Shown piece by piece: positions 17,737-29,835 of a DNA stretch of 30,781 bases (position 1 is its first letter; every line of letters begins with the position of its first letter). The DNA is taken from assembly GCA_963580235.1 (NCBI GenBank), contig CAUZJP010000001.1, positions 1 through 30,781 on the forward strand, read 5' to 3'. The position numbers were made by a program, and so were the translations under genes. Under the pieces are notes generated by a model that did no database searches, was not told where the DNA came from, and worked only from the letters and a program-made list of their open reading frames with translations. This DNA is from Candidatus Thalassarchaeaceae archaeon (lineage in GTDB: Archaea > Thermoplasmatota > Poseidoniia > Poseidoniales > Thalassarchaeaceae).

Positions 17737-18757
17737 GTTGTGCTTGTTCAAGGTAGGGCTGTGCCCAAGTGTCGCCTCCAGTGACCAACCTTCTGGCAAG
17801 GAAGAAGGCGGCAGCAAATTCCTCTGCTTCCAAGAGAGTCCGTAACTTCTCTTCATCATCAGATTCCCTCGCCTCCTCCTCGGTTGGTAGGGCAAGTTCT
17901 TCATCGGGAGATGCAACCTTCATCGCTAGCGCCTCCATCCGTTCTAGGAACATCTCACGGGTGTCAGCGCTGGGTGCTTTCCATCGCTTGCCGGCACCAT
18001 CCATTCGTTTCTCCATCCGTACACGGAAGTTGTCGCGGGTAGGTAGTTGGGGGAAGTGAGTTTGGGCTTGGTCGTAGCAGAACCAGGCATCATCGACCTC
18101 GCCGCGCTTTTCATGCAGCCTGCCGAGTTCAGTCCACGCTTCATGGTTCATTGGTCGGTGGGCGAGGAGCCGTCGAATGAGTCTGATAAAGGCCTCTTCG
18201 TCCACAGTGCGCACTCTCTCCATCCGGCGACCGAAGAGGATGTTTGCGCGTGGGTCTGAGAGATCTAGTTTGAGTACTCTAGCCTCAAAATCCGAAATGC
18301 CGGTGGGGCCGATGATGGACCACCACGCATCAGGGTCGAGAGGGTCGGTGTCGAGCGCTGCATTGAGCAATTCTCCACCATGTGTGAGCATTTCCAAGGA
18401 ACCGAGTTGGCCCAGCTGCTCGGGGTCTCTTCCAAGGATTGTGAAGAGATCCTCGAGGACTGCGCGCAAGCCGTCAGAATCCGATAGAAGAAGTTTGACT
18501 TCGGTTAAGATGGTCCAATTAGCCTCGTGAGTGAAGTCGTGCAGGACTGCCTGTCGGGCACTCTGTTCGGCCCATGAGAGGTTCTTCGCCATATGAGCCG
18601 GGTCACTCTGTGCCAACTTGAGGAACTTCTTGGCCTGCGCTCGATGGCGATTACCCAAGCTTCGCCTCGGGTGCTGTAATCCGCTACCGCTCTGCTCGAC
18701 CACGATGGCACGCCGTCGTTCAAGCGTCAATGAACCTTCGGCAACCTGTGCCTTCAT
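17720..18757 (-). CDS. Hypothetical TPR-containing protein
   Basis: 345 aa, ATGA-coupled to the UbiD-family gene. A clear TPR-like unit: PMNHEAWTELGRLHEKRGEVDDAWFCYDQA..FP. Confidence 0.7.
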   Translation of the reverse strand: MKAQVAEGSLTLERRRAIVVEQSGSGLQHPRRSLGNRHRAQAKKFLKLAQSDPAHMAKNLSWAEQSARQAVLHDFTHEANWTILTEVKLLLSDSDGLRAVLEDLFTILGRDPEQLGQLGSLEMLTHGGELLNAALDTDPLDPDAWWSIIGPTGISDFEARVLKLDLSDPRANILFGRRMERVRTVDEEAFIRLIRRLLAHRPMNHEAWTELGRLHEKRGEVDDAWFCYDQAQTHFPQLPTRDNFRVRMEKRMDGAGKRWKAPSADTREMFLERMEALAMKVASPDEELALPTEEEARESDDEEKLRTLLEAEEFAAAFFLARRLVTGGDTWAQPYLEQAQLNLDQ

Positions 18758-20019
18758 GTCACTGATGTGAAAGGACCTTTGTCGCTTCCGAATGGAATCG
18801 TCGCATCGTAGCCAATCTTTGATGTCAAGCCATCCTCGCTCCGGGTCGGGTCAAGGCTACTTCCCCGCTGATTAGTCAGTATGATGGTGTCTCTATCGGG
18901 CTGCCACCGGGTCATGAGCGCCCACTCTACCCTTACAGGATCCGCAGGGTCAACATCGGTGTCAACAATGGTGACCGCCTTCATCGAGGTGTGACCGGCG
19001 AAGGCAGCCATAATTGCCGCATTTGCGTCATCAGCCGATTTCGGTTCGATTTGAACGACCGCAGACAACCAACCAGAGCCACCTTCCGTCATCACCACAT
19101 CAGTGCATGTGCAGACCTCAGAAACGGCCGCCTTGATGGTCGGTGCTCGCGGCAGCCCCATCAGGGCGCGGTGTTCACTACCGGCAGGCAGGATGGCGTG
19201 GAATATGGGGTCATTTCGATGGTGGATCGAGTGGATTTCGATAACCGGCTCCTGTCGAACATCGTCTACCGTCCCAGTGATGTCAACATAGGGCCCCTCA
19301 TCATCATCCTGCAGAGTGATGGTGGCCGCCATAGCGTATTCCGAATCGGCTGGCACTTCAATGCCGTTTGAGAGTTTGACCAGTTCGAGGGGCTTTCCGT
19401 AGAATTTCTCGTGTAACGCAGCAGCAACCGCGAGCTCGTCAATGGGCTCATCGAAGGACATCGCTGCGGCGAGTAGAACGCATGGGTCCGCTCCGTTCAC
19501 GATGGCGATGGGGAGTGGCTCACCCGCGGCGCGAGACTCGTTCACCATAGTGCGCAAATGTCGCGGCACCAGCCTCGCCACCACATGATTCGCATCTCGT
19601 ACGAACTGCCGATGGTAGGAGACATTTCGGTTTCCGCCCCATTCGGCGATGACTATGCTCGCAGACATGTAGCGACCTCTGTCCTCTGGCCAGTGATGGG
19701 GAATCGGTAGTTGATGGAGGTCTACCGGGTCGATTGAATTCTCGAATACGGGAGCATCTCCCGCGCAGGATACGGATTCACTTCTGTTGTTCATCGCCCA
19801 TCCGAGAACATCGATCACATCTGATTCTGAGATGTCGAAGTTTGAGGCCAAATTATGCCTCATACAGATATTCATTGCCGCCCGGTGGCCCGGTGCACCC
19901 AGAACTTCATCAAAGACAAGGGTCCTCCCGCGATGCTCCAAAGCAATCTCTCTCATTCCTCCGACGGGGTCTACTGAGGTGATATGCATCGCCTCACCGA
20001 GGTGCTCCCTGAAGGTCAT
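18754..20019 (-). CDS. UbiD-family prFMN-dependent decarboxylase, candidate trans-anhydromevalonate-5-phosphate decarboxylase
   Basis: DLHQLPIPHHWPEDRGRY, NVSYHR, RHL, EGPYVDITG, VDTDVDP..VEWALMTR and GSSLDP. At 421 aa it is in the size range of the short archaeal UbiD subgroup. The substrate is inferred from context. Confidence 0.85.
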   Translation of the reverse strand: MTFREHLGEAMHITSVDPVGGMREIALEHRGRTLVFDEVLGAPGHRAAMNICMRHNLASNFDISESDVIDVLGWAMNNRSESVSCAGDAPVFENSIDPVDLHQLPIPHHWPEDRGRYMSASIVIAEWGGNRNVSYHRQFVRDANHVVARLVPRHLRTMVNESRAAGEPLPIAIVNGADPCVLLAAAMSFDEPIDELAVAAALHEKFYGKPLELVKLSNGIEVPADSEYAMAATITLQDDDEGPYVDITGTVDDVRQEPVIEIHSIHHRNDPIFHAILPAGSEHRALMGLPRAPTIKAAVSEVCTCTDVVMTEGGSGWLSAVVQIEPKSADDANAAIMAAFAGHTSMKAVTIVDTDVDPADPVRVEWALMTRWQPDRDTIILTNQRGSSLDPTRSEDGLTSKIGYDATIPFGSDKGPFTSVT

Positions 20020-20148: not shown

Positions 20149-20169
20149 GGGCTGCTTCAAGGTGTACGC

Positions 20170-20598
20170 ATGGGTAGGGGACTCTTTGCTGGTGCCAAAA
20201 TGAAGCGTGACCGTCAGCGGTTTCGGTGGAAGGACCGAGGCTACAAGAGGCGGGTTCTGAAGCTCAAGGAGAAGTCCGATCCACTCGGCGGTTCGTCCCA
20301 AGCAAATGGCATCGTCATCGAGAAGGTCGGCATTGAGGCGAAGCAGCCCAACTCCGGTATCAGGAAGGCCGTGAAGATCAGTCTGATTCGAACTGGCAAC
20401 AAGTTGACCGCCTTCGCTCCCGGCGACGGTGCAATCAACTTCATCGATGAACACGACGAGGTTCTCGTCGAAGGAATCGGTGGCCGCATGGGCCGTTCCT
20501 ACGGAGACATTCCCGGTGTTCGATACAAGGTCATCAAGGTCAACGGCGTCTCACTAAATGAGATGGTTCGAGGGCGCAAGGAGAAGCCGATTCGGTGA
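20170..20598 (+). CDS. rps12: 30S ribosomal protein S12 (uS12)
   Basis: [33 protein letters not shown] and [18 protein letters not shown] before the ATG at 20170. Confidence 0.97.
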
Positions 20599-20607
20599 GG
20601 TGTTTTC

Positions 20608-21252
20608 ATGGCAGATGAAGCAGAACTAGTCGAAGATGCACCTGAGCCCGAGGTCAAGGTTGAGGAGCCCGAGGTTCCAATCGCTGGCATCGGAACACTC
20701 GTCTTCGGTAAGTGGGACACTTCAGAAGTGACCTGCTTCGACCCTGGTATCGCTCCTTATGTCAATCTCAAGACCGTCGGCGTGCCACACTCTGGCGGCC
20801 GCCACGCAAACATGTGGTTCGGGAAGAGCAAACTATCAGTTGTCGAGCGCTTCATCAATGGCCTGATGAGAACAGGCCGTTACTCCGGCAAGAAACTTTC
20901 AACCGCGAAGGCGTTTGAGGCTGCCTTGGACAGAATCGCACAGCGGGATGGTGTAAATCCTCTACAGGTCTTTGTTGACGCCATCTCCAATGCAGCCCCG
21001 ATGGAGGAAATCATTCGAATCAAGTTCGGGGCTGTAAGCCAACCAAAGGCTGTCGACTCAGCCCCAAGCCGCCGCCTTGATGTCGCAATTCGCCATCTAG
21101 CGAAGGGCGCCACCCAGGCGACACACAAGAGCAAGAAGACCCTCACTCAAGGGATTGTGACAGAGATTTCCAAGGCAGCCGAAGGTGATGTCACCTCCTA
21201 CGCCATCGGAAAGAAGGATGAGGTTGAGAGAATCGCAGCCTCTGCTCGTTGA
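20608..21252 (+). CDS. rps7: 30S ribosomal protein S7 (uS7) with an acidic N-terminal extension
   Basis: FGKWD, PHSGGRHA..FGKS..VERFIN, NPLQV..AI.NAAP.EE, VDSAPSRRLD and KKDEVERIAASAR. GAGGTG SD. Confidence 0.97.
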   Translation: MADEAELVEDAPEPEVKVEEPEVPIAGIGTLVFGKWDTSEVTCFDPGIAPYVNLKTVGVPHSGGRHANMWFGKSKLSVVERFINGLMRTGRYSGKKLSTAKAFEAALDRIAQRDGVNPLQVFVDAISNAAPMEEIIRIKFGAVSQPKAVDSAPSRRLDVAIRHLAKGATQATHKSKKTLTQGIVTEISKAAEGDVTSYAIGKKDEVERIAASAR

Positions 21253-21350
21253 TTCAACCGTCACCCGGCTCCTGCTCTTTCCTTCAAATTGACAATTTTT
21301 ATGAAGATTTTTTGAGAAACAGCCATAGGTATCAGTTGGAGGGTGAATTC

Positions 21351-22508
21351 ATGGAAGATGTTGAGAGGAGCGCAAAACCATTCAACATCAACGCTTTGAA
21401 TGCAGTTTTTCTATTGGGCACGCCTCCCCTTGCCCTCATCGGCGCAATCTGGCACGGCTTCACATTCGGCATCACTTGGGTCGAAGGTGCGATCTTTTTC
21501 GTTTGGTATTTCGCCTGTGGTCTTTCAATCACCGTTGGCTATCACAGGCTGTTCACACATCGTAGTCACGAAGCGCGCTGGCCCCTCCGACTCGGCTATG
21601 CAATGTTCGGAGCCGGAGCCTTCCAAAATTCAATTCTTGAATGGTCAAGTGACCACCGCCGCCACCACAAGGAGACCGACCTCACCACAGACCCTTACAA
21701 CGCCGCTCGAGGATTTTGGTGGAGCCATTTTCTATGGATTATTTTCGATGAGCATACTGGTGAACCAGATTATTCCAATGTGCGTGACTTGCAGAAGGAC
21801 TGGGTTGTCCGATTCCAGCATCAGTTCATCTTCTCGACTGGATTCCTAATTGGCATGGTGGCCCCCGGCTTGGTTGGATACGCAATCGGAGGGCTTGGAG
21901 CAGGAATTGGAGGTTTTGTCTGGGGGGGCTTGGTTCGTACCGTTTTCGTGCATCACGGGACCTTCCTCATCAATTCGGCAGCACATGTCTGGGGTAAGCA
22001 GCCGTACACTACCGAAAACAGCAGTAAGGACTCCTTCTGGCTCGCATTCTTCACCTTTGGTGAGGGCTACCATAACTTCCACCACACCTTTCAGGCTGAC
22101 TATCGAAACGGCCATCGTTGGTGGCAATGGGATCCCTCCAAATGGTGGATTAAGGCATTCTCGCTGATCAAGTTGAATGACGGTCTTAAGAGGACTCCAA
22201 AGTGGGCGATTGAGTCTGCAAGAATGGAGACTAGATTTCAGAAGGCCGCAGCCGACTCTGTACAGCTCCATGGGGATTCGGAGATGGGTCTCTTTCAGGC
22301 CCGCTCAAAGCAGTGCTGTGAGGGGTATAGATTGGCCATGCGTCAAGTTGACGGAATGCGCCAACAACTGAAGCGTGCGAGTGCTGAGAAACGGCAGCAA
22401 CTAGTGGGACAGATTAGGCAAGGAAAGGAGTCAGTGCGACTCGTTCGAGATGAGTTTTCACGGCTCCTAGAGGAGATGTGCCTCGCCACAGCGCCAGTCT
22501 TGTCTTGA
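21351..22508 (+). CDS. Membrane-bound delta-9-type acyl-CoA/acyl-lipid fatty-acid desaturase with a C-terminal coiled coil
   Basis: All three His boxes are present: GYHRLFTH (~21543), DHRRHH (~21654) and GEGYHNFHH (~22071). Also SITVG, TDPYNA.RGFWWSH, HGTFLINSAAH and DYRNG..WWQWDPSKW. GGAGGGTGA SD before the ATG at 21351. Confidence 0.92.
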   Translation: MEDVERSAKPFNINALNAVFLLGTPPLALIGAIWHGFTFGITWVEGAIFFVWYFACGLSITVGYHRLFTHRSHEARWPLRLGYAMFGAGAFQNSILEWSSDHRRHHKETDLTTDPYNAARGFWWSHFLWIIFDEHTGEPDYSNVRDLQKDWVVRFQHQFIFSTGFLIGMVAPGLVGYAIGGLGAGIGGFVWGGLVRTVFVHHGTFLINSAAHVWGKQPYTTENSSKDSFWLAFFTFGEGYHNFHHTFQADYRNGHRWWQWDPSKWWIKAFSLIKLNDGLKRTPKWAIESARMETRFQKAAADSVQLHGDSEMGLFQARSKQCCEGYRLAMRQVDGMRQQLKRASAEKRQQLVGQIRQGKESVRLVRDEFSRLLEEMCLATAPVLS

Positions 22509-22536
22509 GGCCCGCAGTACCTCGTTCAGCCCCGAT

Positions 22537-22576
22537 GTCCTCGTGCGCGGGTGCTCGCCCGCGCAGGGGACTTTAT
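22537..22576 (+). terminator. GC-rich stem-loop with a short U-tract after the desaturase (possible terminator or RNA-stabilising hairpin)
   Basis: Perfect arms TGCGCGGG (22544-22551) and CCCGCGCA (22558-22565) around a 6-nt loop, extended by GTCCTC/GGGGAC and followed by TTTAT. Confidence 0.45.
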
Positions 22577-22595
22577 CAGTGGAGGGCAGGTCGGC
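22571..22595 (+). promoter_or_regulatory. Putative fusA promoter: TATA-like box plus GGCAGGTCGGC
   Basis: CTTTATCAG (22571-22579), then the same 11-mer at 22585-22595, 22 nt before the ATG (21 nt for rps12). Confidence 0.45.
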
Positions 22596-22617
22596 CGCGA
22601 CACCAAAGGTGGACCAC

Positions 22618-24825
22618 ATGGGACGCAAGGAAGACAACATCGCAAAGGCCACAGAAGTCATGCACATACGATCGCAGATTCGAAACCTCTGCATCGCTGC
22701 TCACATCGACCACGGAAAGACCACTCTCTCTGACAATTTGATCGCTGGCGCCGGGATGATGAGTGAGGAATTGGCAGGCAAGGCCCGAGTTCTCGATTTC
22801 GACGAGCAGGAAGCCGCACGTGGAATTACAATCAACGCTGCATCAGCATCGATGGTGCACAACATCGAGGGTACTGATTACCTAATCAATCTGATAGACA
22901 CACCCGGCCACGTCGACTTTGGTGGTGACGTTACCCGTGCCATGCGAGCGGTCGACGGCTGCTTCATCCTCACCTGTGCGGTTGAGGGTGCCATGCCTCA
23001 GACCGAGACGGTGGTCCGCCAGGCACTCAAGGAGAAGGTGAAGCCAGTGTTGTTCATCAACAAGGTGGACCGCCTCATCAACGAACTTCAGGTAACGCCA
23101 GAGGATATGCAGGAGCGATTCATGGGCCAGATTCAGAAGGTCAACAAACTGATTCGCCAATTCGCGCCCGAGGAGCACAAGAAGGACTGGCTGGTCAGCG
23201 TTGCTGACGGCACGGTCGCCTTTGGTTCAGCATACCACAACTGGGGGATTACAGTTCCATACATGCAGAAGTCCGGCATTTCATTCAAGGACATCTTTGA
23301 TTATTGTAACGACGAAAATCAAGAGGAGTTGGCTGAGAAAGCGCCTGTTCACGAGGTGCTTCTAGATATGGCGGTATCACAACTACCCGGCCCAGTCGAG
23401 GCCCAAGAATACCGAATTCCCAACATTTGGACTGGTGATTTAGAATCAGAATTGGGCAAGGCGATGATGACTTGCGATCCTGAAGGGCCGCTTGCTCTGA
23501 TGATTACCAAGATTTGGATGGATCCCCACGCTGGTGAAGTAGCAGTCGGCCGCCTATACTCTGGTACGGTTAACCACGGAGAGAGCGTTTGGGCGATTGG
23601 CGGTGCAAAGGCCGAGCGCGTTCAACAGGTCAGCATGATGGTCGGCGCTGATAGAATCGCGGTTCCGATGATTGTAGCTGGGAACATTGCAGCGATCACC
23701 GGAATCCGCTCAGCCGCTGCTGGAGTGACAATCGGTCGAGAGAGTGACATGGTTCCATTCGAAGCCATTCGCCACTACTCTGAACCTGTCGTGACAGTAG
23801 CAGTCGAACCCAAGTCAATGAAAGACCTTCCCAAGTTCATCGATGCACTGCGATCCCTTGCGAAGGCCGACGCCTCGCTCGAGGTTCGGACTAATGCCGA
23901 GACCGGGGAGGCACTTCTCGCCGGAATGGGCGAACTCCACTTGGAGATCACAGTCTACCGAATTGAGGAGGAGCAGGGGATCAAGGTCTCCGTCTCCGAG
24001 CCAATCGTCGTCTACCGGGAAACCGTCTCTGGAACCAATCGAGGCTCCTCGTTCGAGGGCAAGTCACCCAACCGACACAATCGATTCTACATCGAGGTGG
24101 AACAACTCTCCCCGGAAGTCGTCCAAGGACTGCGTGAAGGCGAGTTCGGTAGCGGCACAATCCGACCGAAAGATGGCAAGGAGGTCGGCCGGAAGTTCGG
24201 CGAGTACGGAATGGACAAGGACAAGATGCGCAAGATTTACGCCATCAACGGGACCAATGTCCTAGTCAACGACACAAAGGGTATCCAGTATCTTCATGAG
24301 ACCAAGGAACTACTCATCGAATCGTTCAACGAAGTATGCACGAAGGGCCCGATTGCTGAGGAGCCGATTATGGGCGTCATGGTCCGGCTGGTGGATGCAA
24401 AGCTCCACGAGGACGCCATTCACCGCGGTCCTGCGCAGACCATTCCAGCGATGCGGAACGCAATCAAGGGTGCTATGGTACGCGCTGGTTCTGTTCTCAT
24501 GGAGCCGATTCAGAAGTTGAATGTCTCAGTGCCGAATGACTGGCTCGGCGGCGTCACTCGTGAGTTGACAATGCGCCGTGGTGAGATTGAGGATATGCCA
24601 TCGGATGGTGAGATTACAACTGTGATTGGAAAAGTACCAGTCGCTGAAACCTTCGGATTCTCCAATGACATCCGTGCGGCCAGCCAAGGTCGCGCGGTAT
24701 GGAATACCGAGAATTGCGGCTTCGAAGAGTTACCTCGTAGCCTACTCGCTGATACGGTCGCTGTGATTCGAGAGCGCAAGGGCCTAAAGCCAGATATTCC
24801 CGGTGAATCCTACTACGCCGATTGA
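22618..24825 (+). CDS. fusA: Translation elongation factor EF-2 (aEF-2)
   Basis: AHIDHGKTTLSD, RGITI, DTPGHVDF, NKVD and the diphthamide loop HEDAIHRGPAQ. AAGGTG SD before the ATG at 22618. Confidence 0.98.
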   Translation: MGRKEDNIAKATEVMHIRSQIRNLCIAAHIDHGKTTLSDNLIAGAGMMSEELAGKARVLDFDEQEAARGITINAASASMVHNIEGTDYLINLIDTPGHVDFGGDVTRAMRAVDGCFILTCAVEGAMPQTETVVRQALKEKVKPVLFINKVDRLINELQVTPEDMQERFMGQIQKVNKLIRQFAPEEHKKDWLVSVADGTVAFGSAYHNWGITVPYMQKSGISFKDIFDYCNDENQEELAEKAPVHEVLLDMAVSQLPGPVEAQEYRIPNIWTGDLESELGKAMMTCDPEGPLALMITKIWMDPHAGEVAVGRLYSGTVNHGESVWAIGGAKAERVQQVSMMVGADRIAVPMIVAGNIAAITGIRSAAAGVTIGRESDMVPFEAIRHYSEPVVTVAVEPKSMKDLPKFIDALRSLAKADASLEVRTNAETGEALLAGMGELHLEITVYRIEEEQGIKVSVSEPIVVYRETVSGTNRGSSFEGKSPNRHNRFYIEVEQLSPEVVQGLREGEFGSGTIRPKDGKEVGRKFGEYGMDKDKMRKIYAINGTNVLVNDTKGIQYLHETKELLIESFNEVCTKGPIAEEPIMGVMVRLVDAKLHEDAIHRGPAQTIPAMRNAIKGAMVRAGSVLMEPIQKLNVSVPNDWLGGVTRELTMRRGEIEDMPSDGEITTVIGKVPVAETFGFSNDIRAASQGRAVWNTENCGFEELPRSLLADTVAVIRERKGLKPDIPGESYYAD

Positions 24826-24833
24826 GAACCCAA

Positions 24834-26525
24834 TCAGGCGATTCTGATAAGTTGCCAGTCGGTCAGCTCTCTCAGCACCGAAACTGCTTTCGACTCGGGC
24901 AGTGAATCGAGACAGCGATGTGCAATTGCATGGTGATCCAACGCCCTATTCTTGGCATACGCAATGGAGCCTACCGCCTCAAGTTCGGCGAGAACTGAGT
25001 CGAGGGTGCCACGAGAGGTTGCATGGTCTCCACATCCGAAGACCTGGTGGAAGGTCGGTAGAAGTGTTTCGTCTTGGCTGTGGGCGTGAATGGCAATCAG
25101 AGTCTTCTTCCCCTCAATCACATCAGAGCAGGCGGGCTTCCCGAGCGTATCGGAGTCACCAGTGGCGTCAATCAAGTCATCCATCAACTGGAAGCAGAGG
25201 CCGACATTCTCCCCCCATTCAGCAAGGCACTCGATGGTCTCATCCGAAGCACCTGATAGGAGGGCTCCAGTCCGAGCTGTGGTCGTGAACATTGCAGCAG
25301 TTTTTCCGGAAATCATGGCCAGGTAATCCGATTCTGAGACAGACTTCTGATTTTCAAAGTCCATGTCCATCTGCTGGCCTTCCGAGACATTTCTCACCAT
25401 CTGGCCAATAATCAACACAAGTTGCCTGAAGTGTTCTGCCGAGATGTGGGGTGACTCACTCAGCACCTCGAATGATACGGCAAGCATCGCATCACCAGCG
25501 TTGATTGCTGTTGGATGGTCGAATTCGATGTGAACTGCCGGGCGCCCCCTCCTCACCTCATCGTTGTCCATGATGTCGTCATGCACCAAAGTGAAGTTGT
25601 GGATGATTTCGATTGCTGCTCCAAGGTCATAGAGCCCCTCATCTGCTTGACCAGTCGCCTCTGCAACCAACCGGGGTAGGATGGCACGGAGTCTCTTACC
25701 CCCACCATCAATGAGGTGCAGCATCGCGGCCTGAAGTCGCTCATGGCTAGTCTTGGAAAGAGCGGCGCGTATTCTCGGCTCGACTTCTATACGGTGGTTT
25801 TCCAACGCATTGAGTAGAAGACTGTCCTCTCGCACCGTGACATCCCCCACCGAGTGAATTTTACCATCCTGAAAACTGGACATGTCGTCTAAATTACCCC
25901 ACCAATCGTCTAGGAACAGTTCTTTGATATGCTGGAACCATGGGGCGATAATCTCTCCATTTGCAGGGGAACGGGATACCAAGTCTTCCAATTCATCCAT
26001 GGAAACCCACCTAAATTCATCGATTTCGTTTGGATTCGGAGTTACTTCAACATCGGCACGGATGAAGAGGATGTGATCCAATTCATGTTCAATCCAGTTT
26101 TCATCAGCCCTCGCCTTGTACAGCATTCGGCTAATGAATTGGAAATTCTCAACAGGGACCGATTCAGGATCGACTCCCAATTCCTGCTGCAATTTACGAA
26201 TCGCCGCTCTCTTCGCTCCCATTCCGTCCTCCGCCTCGTTCTCTCCTTTCATGTCGAGGGGGTGGCTGCAGCAGGAGTTGGCCCATACCGAGGGGAAGGT
26301 GATTTTGGAGGAGGCTCGCTTCTGGATGAGCAATCGGTCTTTGGAATCGAATAGCAGTAGACTGAAGGCACGGTGTAATTTTCCAGAACCCAGATGACAA
26401 TCGACCTTTGAGGCTGAGCCGATGGCATTGTCCTGTTCGTCAACAAGGATGCACATCTCATCCATCATGGACATCTGCTCAGCATCGTATGAATCGCCAA
26501 GTACTGAGCCGGCCTCTCCATCCAT
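24834..26525 (-). CDS. Fusion of type-1 (Nudix) isopentenyl-diphosphate isomerase and geranylgeranyl-diphosphate synthase
   Basis: N-terminal half: CILVDEQD, HRAFS, WANSCCSHP, EHELDHIL, PNPNEI, PWF. C-terminal half: GGKRLR, FTLVHDDIMDNDEVRRG (FARM), GQQMD, KTAA, FQLMDDLID (SARM), GKKT. One uninterrupted ORF, with GGTGAG SD before the ATG at 26525. Confidence 0.92.
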   Translation of the reverse strand: MDGEAGSVLGDSYDAEQMSMMDEMCILVDEQDNAIGSASKVDCHLGSGKLHRAFSLLLFDSKDRLLIQKRASSKITFPSVWANSCCSHPLDMKGENEAEDGMGAKRAAIRKLQQELGVDPESVPVENFQFISRMLYKARADENWIEHELDHILFIRADVEVTPNPNEIDEFRWVSMDELEDLVSRSPANGEIIAPWFQHIKELFLDDWWGNLDDMSSFQDGKIHSVGDVTVREDSLLLNALENHRIEVEPRIRAALSKTSHERLQAAMLHLIDGGGKRLRAILPRLVAEATGQADEGLYDLGAAIEIIHNFTLVHDDIMDNDEVRRGRPAVHIEFDHPTAINAGDAMLAVSFEVLSESPHISAEHFRQLVLIIGQMVRNVSEGQQMDMDFENQKSVSESDYLAMISGKTAAMFTTTARTGALLSGASDETIECLAEWGENVGLCFQLMDDLIDATGDSDTLGKPACSDVIEGKKTLIAIHAHSQDETLLPTFHQVFGCGDHATSRGTLDSVLAELEAVGSIAYAKNRALDHHAIAHRCLDSLPESKAVSVLRELTDWQLIRIA

Positions 26526-26584
26526 CACTCTCACCGCCCTGCCGACCCCATTTGAGCCTTTAGTCGAGTGGTCGGCACACACTT

Positions 26585-27406
26585 TCAGTGTGTGGTTGCA
26601 AGGATCCTCGTACCGATTGGCGACAAGCCTTGGACAGCGGCGACGAGCCGTCCTGGCTGCTCGCCATCAATCAACCAAACATTAGCCACCTCTTCTGCAA
26701 TTGACGCTGCACGGTTCAACTTCAGTTCAATACCGCCTGTCACATCTATCTCTGATTCGTGTTGGCCGTTCAATGAATCACCTTGACTCCATGTTCTAAC
26801 TAACTCTGAATCAGACTCATGTGGCGGTGAGGACATCAATCCGGGAGCACCACCCATGGCGAATAGAACATGGTCGGCATCTAACTCTAAGGCCACTCTA
26901 TAGACAATATCATCTCCACTCAGGATTCCGAAATCCAATTCTCCTCCCACATTTACAACATCTCCGAACGAGACTGCTACGCGCCCGTCACCATGCGAAA
27001 AAATTGAGATATCACCTGAGAAATTCGGTCCTGTCCCAGTTGCCCAATCTCGAGGTCTTACAGAAAATGTGTCGATTCCACTCGAGGTCAAACCATCGAC
27101 TACGATCGAATTCAAGAGGTCCATGTCGCTTCTAACCGATTGAACAGCCTCGTCCTGACTACTGAGCCCCAATGTGTCCTGAGGTGTCCAACCAGGTTTC
27201 ATTCGACCCTGGGCGAGAGACCATGCCTTTGCCTTCAAATGGCCATAACTGCCTGCACCATGTACTACTATGACACGGAATCCGAGGTCGATTATATCCG
27301 ATACCGCCTCACAAAGTCCAGAAATGACATCGGGTTTTGCAGTGCACAATATACCCTTGTCGGTGATTAACCCGCCGCCGAACTTGATGACCACCAACTC
27401 TGTCAT
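26585..27406 (-). CDS. ipk: Isopentenyl phosphate kinase (amino-acid-kinase fold)
   Basis: VIKFGGGLITDK, VHGAGSYGH (IPK His), SFGDVV, ILSGDDI and DVTGGIELK. Directly upstream of the IDI-GGPPS gene. Confidence 0.9.
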   Translation of the reverse strand: MTELVVIKFGGGLITDKGILCTAKPDVISGLCEAVSDIIDLGFRVIVVHGAGSYGHLKAKAWSLAQGRMKPGWTPQDTLGLSSQDEAVQSVRSDMDLLNSIVVDGLTSSGIDTFSVRPRDWATGTGPNFSGDISIFSHGDGRVAVSFGDVVNVGGELDFGILSGDDIVYRVALELDADHVLFAMGGAPGLMSSPPHESDSELVRTWSQGDSLNGQHESEIDVTGGIELKLNRAASIAEEVANVWLIDGEQPGRLVAAVQGLSPIGTRILATTH

Positions 27407-27433
27407 GTACTCTCGTGAGCGGCCGAGGCTGAT

Positions 27434-27826
27434 GTGGGTTGCGGGTGCCATGTCCGCCGGGTTGATGAGGGTTGGATGGGTGCGCCATCTGTGAGCGAAG
27501 GTCCATCACTAGAGGAATTCCGCCGTTGGCTCCAAGAGGAGTTAGTGATGGCTGACTCAATCAAGAGCAAGTCCCTGCGAGAGAACAGACGCTGGCAGCT
27601 GGAATCGGCACTACAAGAGGCGATGGCCTTCCATGCAAGTGTCAGCCTCCTTCAGGCAGCTGAATTACCACTCTTCGAAGAGGCTGCATCAGTGCGTCTT
27701 CTCGCCACGGAGGAGGAAGCGGCCAGTGTCAAATCTTCTGGAAGCGATGGGGATTATTGCGTAAAGTGTGATGAACCGATGGATTCTGAACTTGAATTCT
27801 GTCCAGTTTGTGGCCACTTCAAGTGA
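27434..27826 (+). CDS. Hypothetical protein with a C-terminal Zn ribbon
   Basis: Helical N-terminal part and C-terminal YCVKC-x10-FCPVCG. The start is uncertain (27434, 27473 or 27491). Confidence 0.6.
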   Translation: MGCGCHVRRVDEGWMGAPSVSEGPSLEEFRRWLQEELVMADSIKSKSLRENRRWQLESALQEAMAFHASVSLLQAAELPLFEEAASVRLLATEEEAASVKSSGSDGDYCVKCDEPMDSELEFCPVCGHFK

Positions 27827-28583: not shown

Positions 28584-28689
28584 CGGAGGCGGCGACCGAC
28601 GCACCGTTCATGAACCCCTCGGTCAACAGTTGCCGATTACCCTCCCGTCTTTCGTCAATGATTATGACAGCGCGCCATGTGGCAGGGCT

Positions 28690-29835
28690 ATGCGTGCCGT
28701 AATTGCAGGCTACACCCGATCACCTTTCCAACCTGCCAACAAGGGTACTTTGGTGGATGTCAGACCTGAGGACTTCGCATCTCAAGTTGCCCAGGAAACT
28801 CTCTCTCGAACTGGGGTTTCTGGAGAGAATGTCGAAGACCTGATGCTCGGCTGCGCCTATCCTGAGGGTGAACAAGGGCTCAACCTCGGGCGGATTCTCA
28901 CCTACATGACCGGACTCCCCACCACAGTGCCTGGAATGACCACCAACCGTCTCTGCGGTTCTTCGATGCAGGTGATTCACAGCGCTGCGGGTGCCTTGAA
29001 GATGGGTTCAGGAGATTGCTTTCTCTGTGGCGGTGTAGAGTCCATGTCTCGGGTTCAACGGGGTGGCTTCAATCGCTCCCCGCACCCCGCACTTGAAGTT
29101 AGACTTCCAGAAGCTTACATTGCGATGGGATTGACCGCTGAGAATTTGGCGGTAAGCCATTCCATCGATCGAGTTCGTCAGGAGGAGTTTGCGCTCCGCA
29201 GCCACCAGAAGGCTGTGCGGGCTGATTCTCATTCCCACTTTGCAGACGAGTTGGTCAGCATCACCACTCCTAATGGAGAGGTAAACTCTGACGGCTGCAT
29301 CAGGGCTACGTCTACGCTTGAGGCGATGGCCGGGTTGAAGCCTGCTTTTGATGCAGCAGGGTCTGTTACCGCTGCGACCTCTTCTCCGCTAACTGATGGC
29401 GCATCATTTCTGCTCGTCTGTTCGGAGGATTTTGCGGTGGAACAGGGAATCAAACCCCTGGCTTCCATCGTCAGCACCGCGGTAGCCGGGGTGCCTCCTG
29501 AAATAATGGGGATAGGTCCTGTGCCGGCGACTCAGAAAGCCCTTTCACGCGCAGGTATTGGCCTTGATGAGGTATCTGTCATCGAATTGAATGAGGCGTT
29601 TTCAGCACAATCAATTGCGGTTCTGTCAGATCTCGGAATCGATGACGATGACCCACGCGTCAATATTGATGGAGGTTCCCTAGCCATCGGTCATCCGCTC
29701 GGTGCGAGCGGCGCCAGAATCACAGGGAAAGCGGCGAGTCTGCTGGAGCGAGTCGGGGGCCAATACGCGCTTGCTACGATGTGTATTGGGGGCGGCATGG
29801 GTATCGCCACAATCCTTGAATCATGGCAGCCATAA
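28690..29835 (+). CDS. Acetyl-CoA C-acyltransferase (thiolase), bacterial FadA-like type
   Basis: NRLCGSSMQ (nucleophile Cys), GGVESMS, MGLTAENLA, NEAFSAQ, GHPLGASG and TMCIGGGMG. Confidence 0.93.
   Translation: MRAVIAGYTRSPFQPANKGTLVDVRPEDFASQVAQETLSRTGVSGENVEDLMLGCAYPEGEQGLNLGRILTYMTGLPTTVPGMTTNRLCGSSMQVIHSAAGALKMGSGDCFLCGGVESMSRVQRGGFNRSPHPALEVRLPEAYIAMGLTAENLAVSHSIDRVRQEEFALRSHQKAVRADSHSHFADELVSITTPNGEVNSDGCIRATSTLEAMAGLKPAFDAAGSVTAATSSPLTDGASFLLVCSEDFAVEQGIKPLASIVSTAVAGVPPEIMGIGPVPATQKALSRAGIGLDEVSVIELNEAFSAQSIAVLSDLGIDDDDPRVNIDGGSLAIGHPLGASGARITGKAASLLERVGGQYALATMCIGGGMGIATILESWQP

Follow-up and report, generated by a model that had tools for sequence, protein, structure and literature searches.

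A fatty-acid desaturase-family gene of bacterial affinity in the gap between the S7 and elongation factor 2 genes of Poseidoniales

Described desaturases and the archaeal enzyme

The single Ole1-like desaturase DesA (SO0197) of Shewanella oneidensis is genetically sufficient for aerobic synthesis of unsaturated fatty acids (PMC4273635). It is the nearest studied bacterial model for a gene found on contig CAUZJP010000001.1 of Candidatus Thalassarchaeaceae archaeon, a member of the Poseidoniales or Marine Group II (MGII). The window, meaning the whole stretch of DNA analysed, is the entire 30.8-kb contig, taken from a metagenome-assembled genome (MAG) of 268 contigs and 72% completeness. An earlier note on this DNA had placed a complete 385-residue desaturase gene co-directionally between rps7 and fusA, and this is confirmed. 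A gene for an SCD-family membrane fatty-acyl desaturase, identified by Pfam, a PDB match and a structural model, occupies positions 21351–22508 of the + strand between the genes for ribosomal protein S7 and archaeal elongation factor 2 (aEF-2, here EF-2), with all di-iron ligands intact. It is a real, old and selectively maintained gene whose enzyme family is ordinary and whose host is unusual. The explanation that fits best overall, and that we regard as likely, is an SCD-like fatty-acyl desaturase acquired once from bacteria, settled in the S7–EF-2 slot and inherited mostly vertically since. Public annotations already label the product an acyl-CoA desaturase; no paper on an MGII desaturase was found in the library searched.

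Like DesA and its relatives, the archaeal enzyme is a stand-alone protein of ~380 residues with no cytochrome b5 domain, and it combines an Ole1-like core with a helical C-terminal extension. The clade beside the archaeal one contains Shewanella species at ~41–42% identity, the tree having taken other Shewanella species and not SO0197. The archaeal enzyme differs from DesA in its host, in the lack of a FabR/DesT-type regulator beside the gene here, and in an identity of only ~40%. With SCD1 (PDB entries 4YMK, 6WF2 and 4ZYO) and yeast Ole1 it shares the fold and four membrane helices, and all di-iron ligands including the Asn and His of the NSAAH motif, at 29–36% identity. Unlike SCD1 and Ole1, it has no fused or detectable cytochrome b5, and unlike SCD1 it carries an extra C-terminal region of ~100 residues forming three long helices. 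The tunnel Trp in the SCD1 segment TWLVNSAAH is Phe in the archaeal enzyme (TFLINSAAH). The cyanobacterial sn-1 stearoyl-lipid delta-9 desaturase DesC and plant ADS belong to the same SCD-like subfamily (~30–32% identity) and take their electrons from a prokaryotic or plastid ferredoxin-type supply. DesC and ADS take chains already in glycerolipids as substrates and, unlike the archaeal enzyme, lack the long C-terminal helices. The acyl carrier protein (ACP)-dependent desaturase-acetylenases JamB and TtuB (26–29% identity) also have an SCD-like fold and work with carrier domains of type I synthases. Their genes lie inside biosynthetic clusters, whereas the archaeal gene is far from the megasynthase operon described below.

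The protein scores 54.5 bits against the Pfam family FA_desaturase (PF00487), above the cut-off of 29.7, and a phmmer search of the PDB matches human and mouse SCD1 at E 1e-42. The three His boxes are HRLFTH (residues 65–70), HRRHH (102–106) and HNFHH (241–245), and the SCD1-type NSAAH motif is also present, with N208 and H212. Residues H65, H70, H102, H105, H106, N208, H212, H241, H244 and H245 align to the SCD1 ligands, and these nine His and one Asn are invariant in an alignment of 22 diverse homologues. The gene is thus the intact SCD or delta-9-type gene with three complete His boxes that had been described from the letters alone. The AlphaFold model has a pLDDT of 91.8, and Foldseek superimposes it on SCD1 structures with TM scores (by target) of 0.80–0.85 and an rmsd of ~2.5 Å. 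The model shows four membrane helices as in SCD1 (residues 15–39, 43–69, 160–180 and 182–208). Residues ~12–283 make up the catalytic core with the four-helix bundle, and residues ~284–377 form the three long C-terminal helices; bacterial relatives of ~380 residues carry an equivalent extension in the alignment.

Fungal Ole1-type acyl-CoA desaturases, at 36% identity, are the closest proteins with reviewed entries. The protein is not a member of NCBIfam NF049918 ('DesA family fatty acid desaturase'), where it scores 50.3 bits against an equivalog cut-off of 400, and a Pfam scan finds no Cyt-b5 domain in it. Distant desaturase forms with fused cytochrome b5 exist elsewhere. Because cytochrome b5 is neither fused to this protein nor found in the genome, the enzyme is filed under the broader SCD-like family and not as Ole1/SCD1-type. 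Judged from its sequence and model, the gene encodes an SCD-like di-iron membrane enzyme of the 'first desaturase' family that is predicted to work.

Junctions, phylogeny and distribution

Logan contigs of seawater metagenomes from other studies, whose runs carry no flag as a possible source of this DNA, bridge both junctions of the desaturase gene. The S7/desaturase junction is bridged by X5 (20433–21394) and the desaturase/EF-2 junction by X5 (22349–22748) and X4 (22384–23309), which supplies the confirmation that the earlier note had called for. A chimeric assembly, or a recent insertion confined to this strain and drifting to loss, could have been suspected from the incompleteness and fragmentation of the MAG with its locus on a single contig, from the GC content of the gene region, which is a little lower (0.52–0.53 versus 0.55–0.56), and from broken copies in two relatives. 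The S12–S7–desaturase–EF-2 order is common to more than 20 related genomes in two families, dN/dS of the gene is ~0.1, and the trees of the gene and of its flanking genes broadly agree. Together with the bridging contigs, the shared order and the purifying selection rule this explanation out, and its probability is negligible.

The closest non-archaeal relatives, at ~40–43% identity, come from Gammaproteobacteria (Shewanella, Aeromonas, Glaciecola, Microbulbifer and Steroidobacteraceae), Verrucomicrobiota, Elusimicrobiota and Bdellovibrionota. The Poseidoniales copies all fall in a single clade, with an SH-aLRT support of 99 in a quick maximum-likelihood tree and support of 99/94 in a careful one. 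The sister of this clade in the 88-row tree is a gammaproteobacterial clade with Shewanella among its members. The root of the tree is not established, so we do not name a donor. The horizontal acquisition proposed earlier agrees well with these trees, which place the Poseidoniales copies as one clade beside Gammaproteobacteria; the pattern would fit a single old acquisition of the desaturase from bacteria.

The gene is found in 99 of the 301 Poseidoniales genomes sampled: in 14 of 149 genomes of family f1, to which this genome belongs, in 82 of 149 of f3 (Poseidoniaceae), and in both genomes of f2. Within f1 it is restricted to a few genera, which have larger genomes: g1 (9 of 11), g11 (2 of 2), g2 (1 of 2), g3 (1 of 3) and g5 (1 of 17). 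It is not found in the sampled genomes of eight other f1 genera, nor in any of the 43 genomes of the f3 genus g8. The S7–desaturase–EF-2 order occurs in f1 genera g1, g2 and g11, with at least desaturase–EF-2 in g5, and in f3 genera g9 (all six examined), g20 and g24; in the g9 genome G030 the contig stops just past the desaturase. This answers the earlier call for a survey of how often the insertion occurs. In UBA60 (L063) and G088 (L152) the UbiD–S12–S7 block is inverted, and the desaturase still adjoins EF-2, not S7. The EF-2 match in UBA60 is itself split in three pieces. In genera g7, g10 and g19 and in f2, the gene is at other sites in varied contexts.

In the gene tree, a clade of 30 sequences divides into an f1 branch and an f3 branch. 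Every f1-branch copy with readable context adjoins EF-2; the f3 branch has in-slot copies at its base and the relocated g7 copies nested within. The flanking-gene tree (UbiD, S12 and S7) has the in-slot state basal in both families, with the other states nested and at least three changes. The simplest view is that the arrangement was in place before the two main families separated and that several losses or moves followed, so it is probably ancestral in Poseidoniales. Two copies seem to be in decay. The match in G026, a complete genome, is split in two and lacks residues ~88–145 (L019, G026:C1:825597-826651), and the copy of G039 has an in-frame TAA (G039:C37:15164-16291).

Where it is kept, the desaturase is under purifying selection, with dN/dS of 0.06–0.12 compared with 0.01–0.07 for S12, S7 and EF-2. 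The idea that the gene became fixed at this locus stands in so far as selection maintains it between S7 and EF-2; occurring in both families, it is neither recent nor sporadic.

Three other Thermoplasmatota families (f10, f28 and f29; genomes G315–G539) have distant SCD-like genes with 31–38% identity in almost every member sampled, so archaeal SCD-like desaturases are not unique to Poseidoniales. These matches mostly cover only the ~270-residue core, and some have in-frame stops.

Gene order, spacers and transcription units

The genes for S12 (uS12; 20164–20598, Pfam Ribosom_S12_S23, E 1.6e-43), S7 (uS7; 20608–21252, Pfam Ribosomal_S7, E 1.5e-32), the desaturase and EF-2 (22618–24825, TIGR00490 with 1055.9 bits and six Pfam domains) are consecutive on the + strand. 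Upstream, a gene for a UbiD-family decarboxylase (18754–20019, - strand; Pfam UbiD and UbiD_C, TIGR00148 with 304 bits) is divergent from S12 and adjoins it in all loci examined, making it an order-wide neighbour. Downstream and convergent with EF-2 is a gene for a fusion of type 1 isopentenyl diphosphate (IPP) isomerase with a prenyltransferase of the geranylgeranyl diphosphate (GGPP) synthase type (24834–26582, - strand; Pfam NUDIX and polyprenyl_synt, TIGR02150). These two, together with an amino-acid-kinase-family (IPK-like) gene (26585–27451, - strand) and a thiolase gene (28630–29835, + strand), make up a set of isoprenoid-precursor genes around the translation genes.

Between S7 and the desaturase is a spacer of 98 nt (21253–21350). 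By direct reading it holds TTTTTATGAA at 21296–21305, a T6 run at 21308–21313 and the Shine-Dalgarno sequence GGAGGGTGA at 21338–21346. The AT-rich upstream region and strong Shine-Dalgarno sequence described earlier are therefore both present. The TTTTTATGAA box is missing in the nearest relative, G003, where the gene is 95% identical, and for this reason its role is uncertain. A different part of the same genus carries its own conserved AT-rich element upstream of the desaturase. Runs of T can also be terminators in archaea, and the T5 and T6 runs 3' of S7 could equally be termination signals of S7. The spacer folds no better than its shuffles (z = +0.31).

The 109-nt spacer between the desaturase and EF-2 folds at -52.3 kcal/mol (z = -2.28). 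It contains, 3' of the desaturase stop codon, a GC-rich hairpin with a 9-bp stem and a 4-nt loop (22544–22565, + strand), as had been noticed before. The closest relatives, G003, G009 and G007, share the hairpin; no T run follows it, and a terminator role is only putative. Next comes a segment (22571–22612, + strand) with a promoter-like box CTTTATCA (22571–22578), a conserved AGGTCGGCCGC element and the Shine-Dalgarno sequence GGTGG (22608–22612). An A/T box ~45 nt before the EF-2 ATG is seen in 41 loci, whether or not the desaturase is upstream. Its form is CTTTATGAAC in f1 (CTTTATCA in this genome) and CTTAAGAACCCC or GATTTGATAAACCCC in f3, with a conserved GC element and a GGTG Shine-Dalgarno sequence after it. 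The box is present with S7, the desaturase or another gene upstream, and the leader motifs are preserved between genomes whose synonymous sites are saturated. We infer that these conserved motifs are EF-2's own promoter and leader.

Without the desaturase, the S7–EF-2 gap is 90–220 nt. In genus g8, which has no desaturase, the gap holds a gene for a weakly DsrE-like protein of 129 residues (E 0.0026) in G028 and G032, and in G029 an open reading frame for a membrane protein of 242 residues with no family; these gap genes are located at L047:1012-1398 (-), L050 and L048:435-1160 (-). Since EF-2 keeps its own promoter-like box regardless and the g8 gap holds unrelated genes, the desaturase probably does not interrupt a tight operon. 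The earlier picture of a gene inside the str operon would have to be corrected. S7–EF-2 is probably a variable slot and not a broken operon; in this order it is a gap with a promoter-like box, and the position of the desaturase is a curiosity.

Two metatranscriptome runs, searched as contigs, contain one exact contig of 151 nt inside the desaturase and none across either junction. Contigs from RNA cannot reveal transcript ends or levels, and the 151-nt contig is only a hint that the gene is expressed.

Fatty-acyl context and proposed function

MGII are reported to have no glycerol-1-phosphate dehydrogenase and to carry glycerol-3-phosphate dehydrogenase, PlsC homologues and fatty-acid genes (PMC6962369, PMC6461757). 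We find a PlsC-type acyltransferase in 300 of 301 Poseidoniales genomes and in none of four archaeal control genomes. This genome has two genes of the acyl-CoA-ligase type as well as beta-oxidation genes. A type I fatty-acid-type megasynthase of 2,827–2,941 residues with the domain order KS-AT-(KS-like)-ACP x2-KR-DH is present in 39 of 41 relatives at 60–98% identity. It belongs to a three-gene operon of a FabI-like enoyl reductase, the megasynthase and an Sfp-type phosphopantetheinyl transferase, which can be read whole in L163 and L164 (positions G000:C165 (L056), L164:136-10225 and L163:802-11247). The proposal that this archaeon makes or remodels fatty-acyl lipids thus has a sensible context, with PlsC, acyl-CoA ligases and the megasynthase in the order and, in locus L068, a desaturase flanked by beta-oxidation genes. 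Circumstantially, these observations speak well for a fatty-acyl substrate. One candidate for GpsA, a PF01210 match, was rejected; it is actually a 3-hydroxyacyl-CoA dehydrogenase.

As electron donor we consider a 2Fe-2S ferredoxin of 95 residues encoded in this genome (G000:C16, L165:1459-1743, + strand). In f1 it is missing from exactly seven genomes, all of them without the desaturase (G004, G011, G018, G019, G020, G022 and G024). It is present despite the lack of a desaturase in genus g8 and in G008, G017 and G023. The ferredoxin is a candidate redox partner, and with too few independent contrasts it is only a lead.

From family and context, the enzyme would use oxygen to add a cis double bond, probably at the delta-9 position, to a long saturated fatty-acyl chain carried as acyl-CoA or already bound in a lipid. 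As cytochrome b5 was not found, fused or free, we propose that electrons come from a separate small donor, possibly the 2Fe-2S ferredoxin. The product would be monounsaturated acyl chains for fatty-acyl-containing lipids, which may tune membrane fluidity. On the evolutionary side, a Poseidoniales ancestor would have acquired the gene from bacteria; it then may have settled in the S7–EF-2 gap, upstream of EF-2's promoter-like box, and have been passed on mostly vertically, with some lineages moving the gene and many losing it.

The substrate could instead be fatty acids taken from seawater and activated to acyl-CoA, and not chains of the cell's own making, with the desaturase balancing saturated and unsaturated acyl-CoA pools in the manner proposed for Pseudomonas DesB. 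DesB is described as using acyl-CoA from exogenous fatty acids (PMC4273635, PMC10634369), Poseidoniales have beta-oxidation genes and acyl-CoA ligases (also PMC6461757, PMC9723583), and in one lineage (L068) the desaturase lies between the genes for 3-hydroxyacyl-CoA dehydrogenase and enoyl-CoA hydratase. However, burning a saturated fatty acid requires no desaturation, the order has its own megasynthase, and neither a DesC-type reductase nor a DesT-type regulator is seen beside the gene. We consider this unlikely as a separate explanation; it overlaps with that of an acquired fatty-acyl desaturase, as its products could still reach membrane lipids. Somewhat less probable again is an action on chains bound to the carrier domains of the PfaA-like megasynthase, tailoring a special 'secondary' lipid and not the bulk membrane lipid. 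The reviewed SCD-like enzymes TtuB and JamB do match the model (ranks 11 and 21, TM score by hit 0.74–0.78), and the megasynthase operon with its ACP domains is nearly universal in the order. Yet the identity is 36% to Ole1-type acyl-CoA enzymes compared with 29% to TtuB and 26% to JamB, the desaturase never adjoins the megasynthase operon in the loci examined, and two thirds of the megasynthase-bearing genomes have no desaturase.

An isoprenoid ether chain of archaeal-type lipids, raised in the earlier note as another substrate, is very improbable. What speaks for it is proximity only, with UbiD, the IDI–GGPP synthase fusion, the IPK-like kinase and the thiolase within ~8 kb. The same mevalonate-pathway and GGPP-synthase neighbours flank S12–S7–EF-2 in genomes that have no desaturase, the desaturase is at unrelated places in other lineages, and no family member found here works on isoprenoids. 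Unsaturated archaeol arises from incomplete geranylgeranyl reduction, for which a desaturase is unnecessary.

Several points weigh against the reading of the gene as a fatty-acyl desaturase that serves the cell's own lipids. A lipid survey of MGII-rich water saw no unusual mixed lipids, and MGII lipids were not found in field surveys (PMC6962369). About two thirds of the sampled genomes lack the desaturase, among them entire genera with PlsC and the megasynthase, and the enzyme is therefore dispensable. The SCD-like family includes acyl-CoA, acyl-lipid and acyl-ACP enzymes, so the carrier is not fixed by the family, and the function of the archaeal members is assigned from family and context. 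The desaturase is probably a separate transcription unit, a view taken from conserved motifs only. The lipid-gene and donor search suggested earlier turned out mixed. PlsC occurs in 300 of the 301 genomes of the order and the ferredoxin in this one, but a search of this genome gave no cytochrome b5, rubredoxin or FNR-type (NAD_binding_1-type) reductase, and no PlsY or GpsA either. At 72% completeness this does not show PlsY and GpsA to be absent.

A desaturase is an anabolic, membrane-tuning enzyme and not a catabolic one. Purifying selection has kept it from a time before the two main families diverged, which points to a building use of fatty-acyl chains, and not only their breakdown, in a third or more of the sampled species genomes. 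The value of the gene lies in its bearing on fatty-acyl lipids in MGII, where it adds to the evidence of fatty-acyl lipid handling. A more far-reaching possibility, which we hold only tentatively, is that ester-linked monounsaturated fatty acids form part of the membrane in many MGII, along a route from the megasynthase through the desaturase to PlsC-type acyltransferases. If true, the archaeal/bacterial 'lipid divide' would be crossed naturally by archaea that are among the most abundant in the ocean, with the desaturase as their fluidity control.

This genome encodes a second protein of the PF00487 family, an AlkB-like alkane 1-monooxygenase (G000:C64, L160:1417-2451, - strand). It matches PDB entries 8f6t (E 1e-43) and 8sbb (E 1e-38), and its gene adjoins a 2-phosphoglycerate-kinase-like gene.

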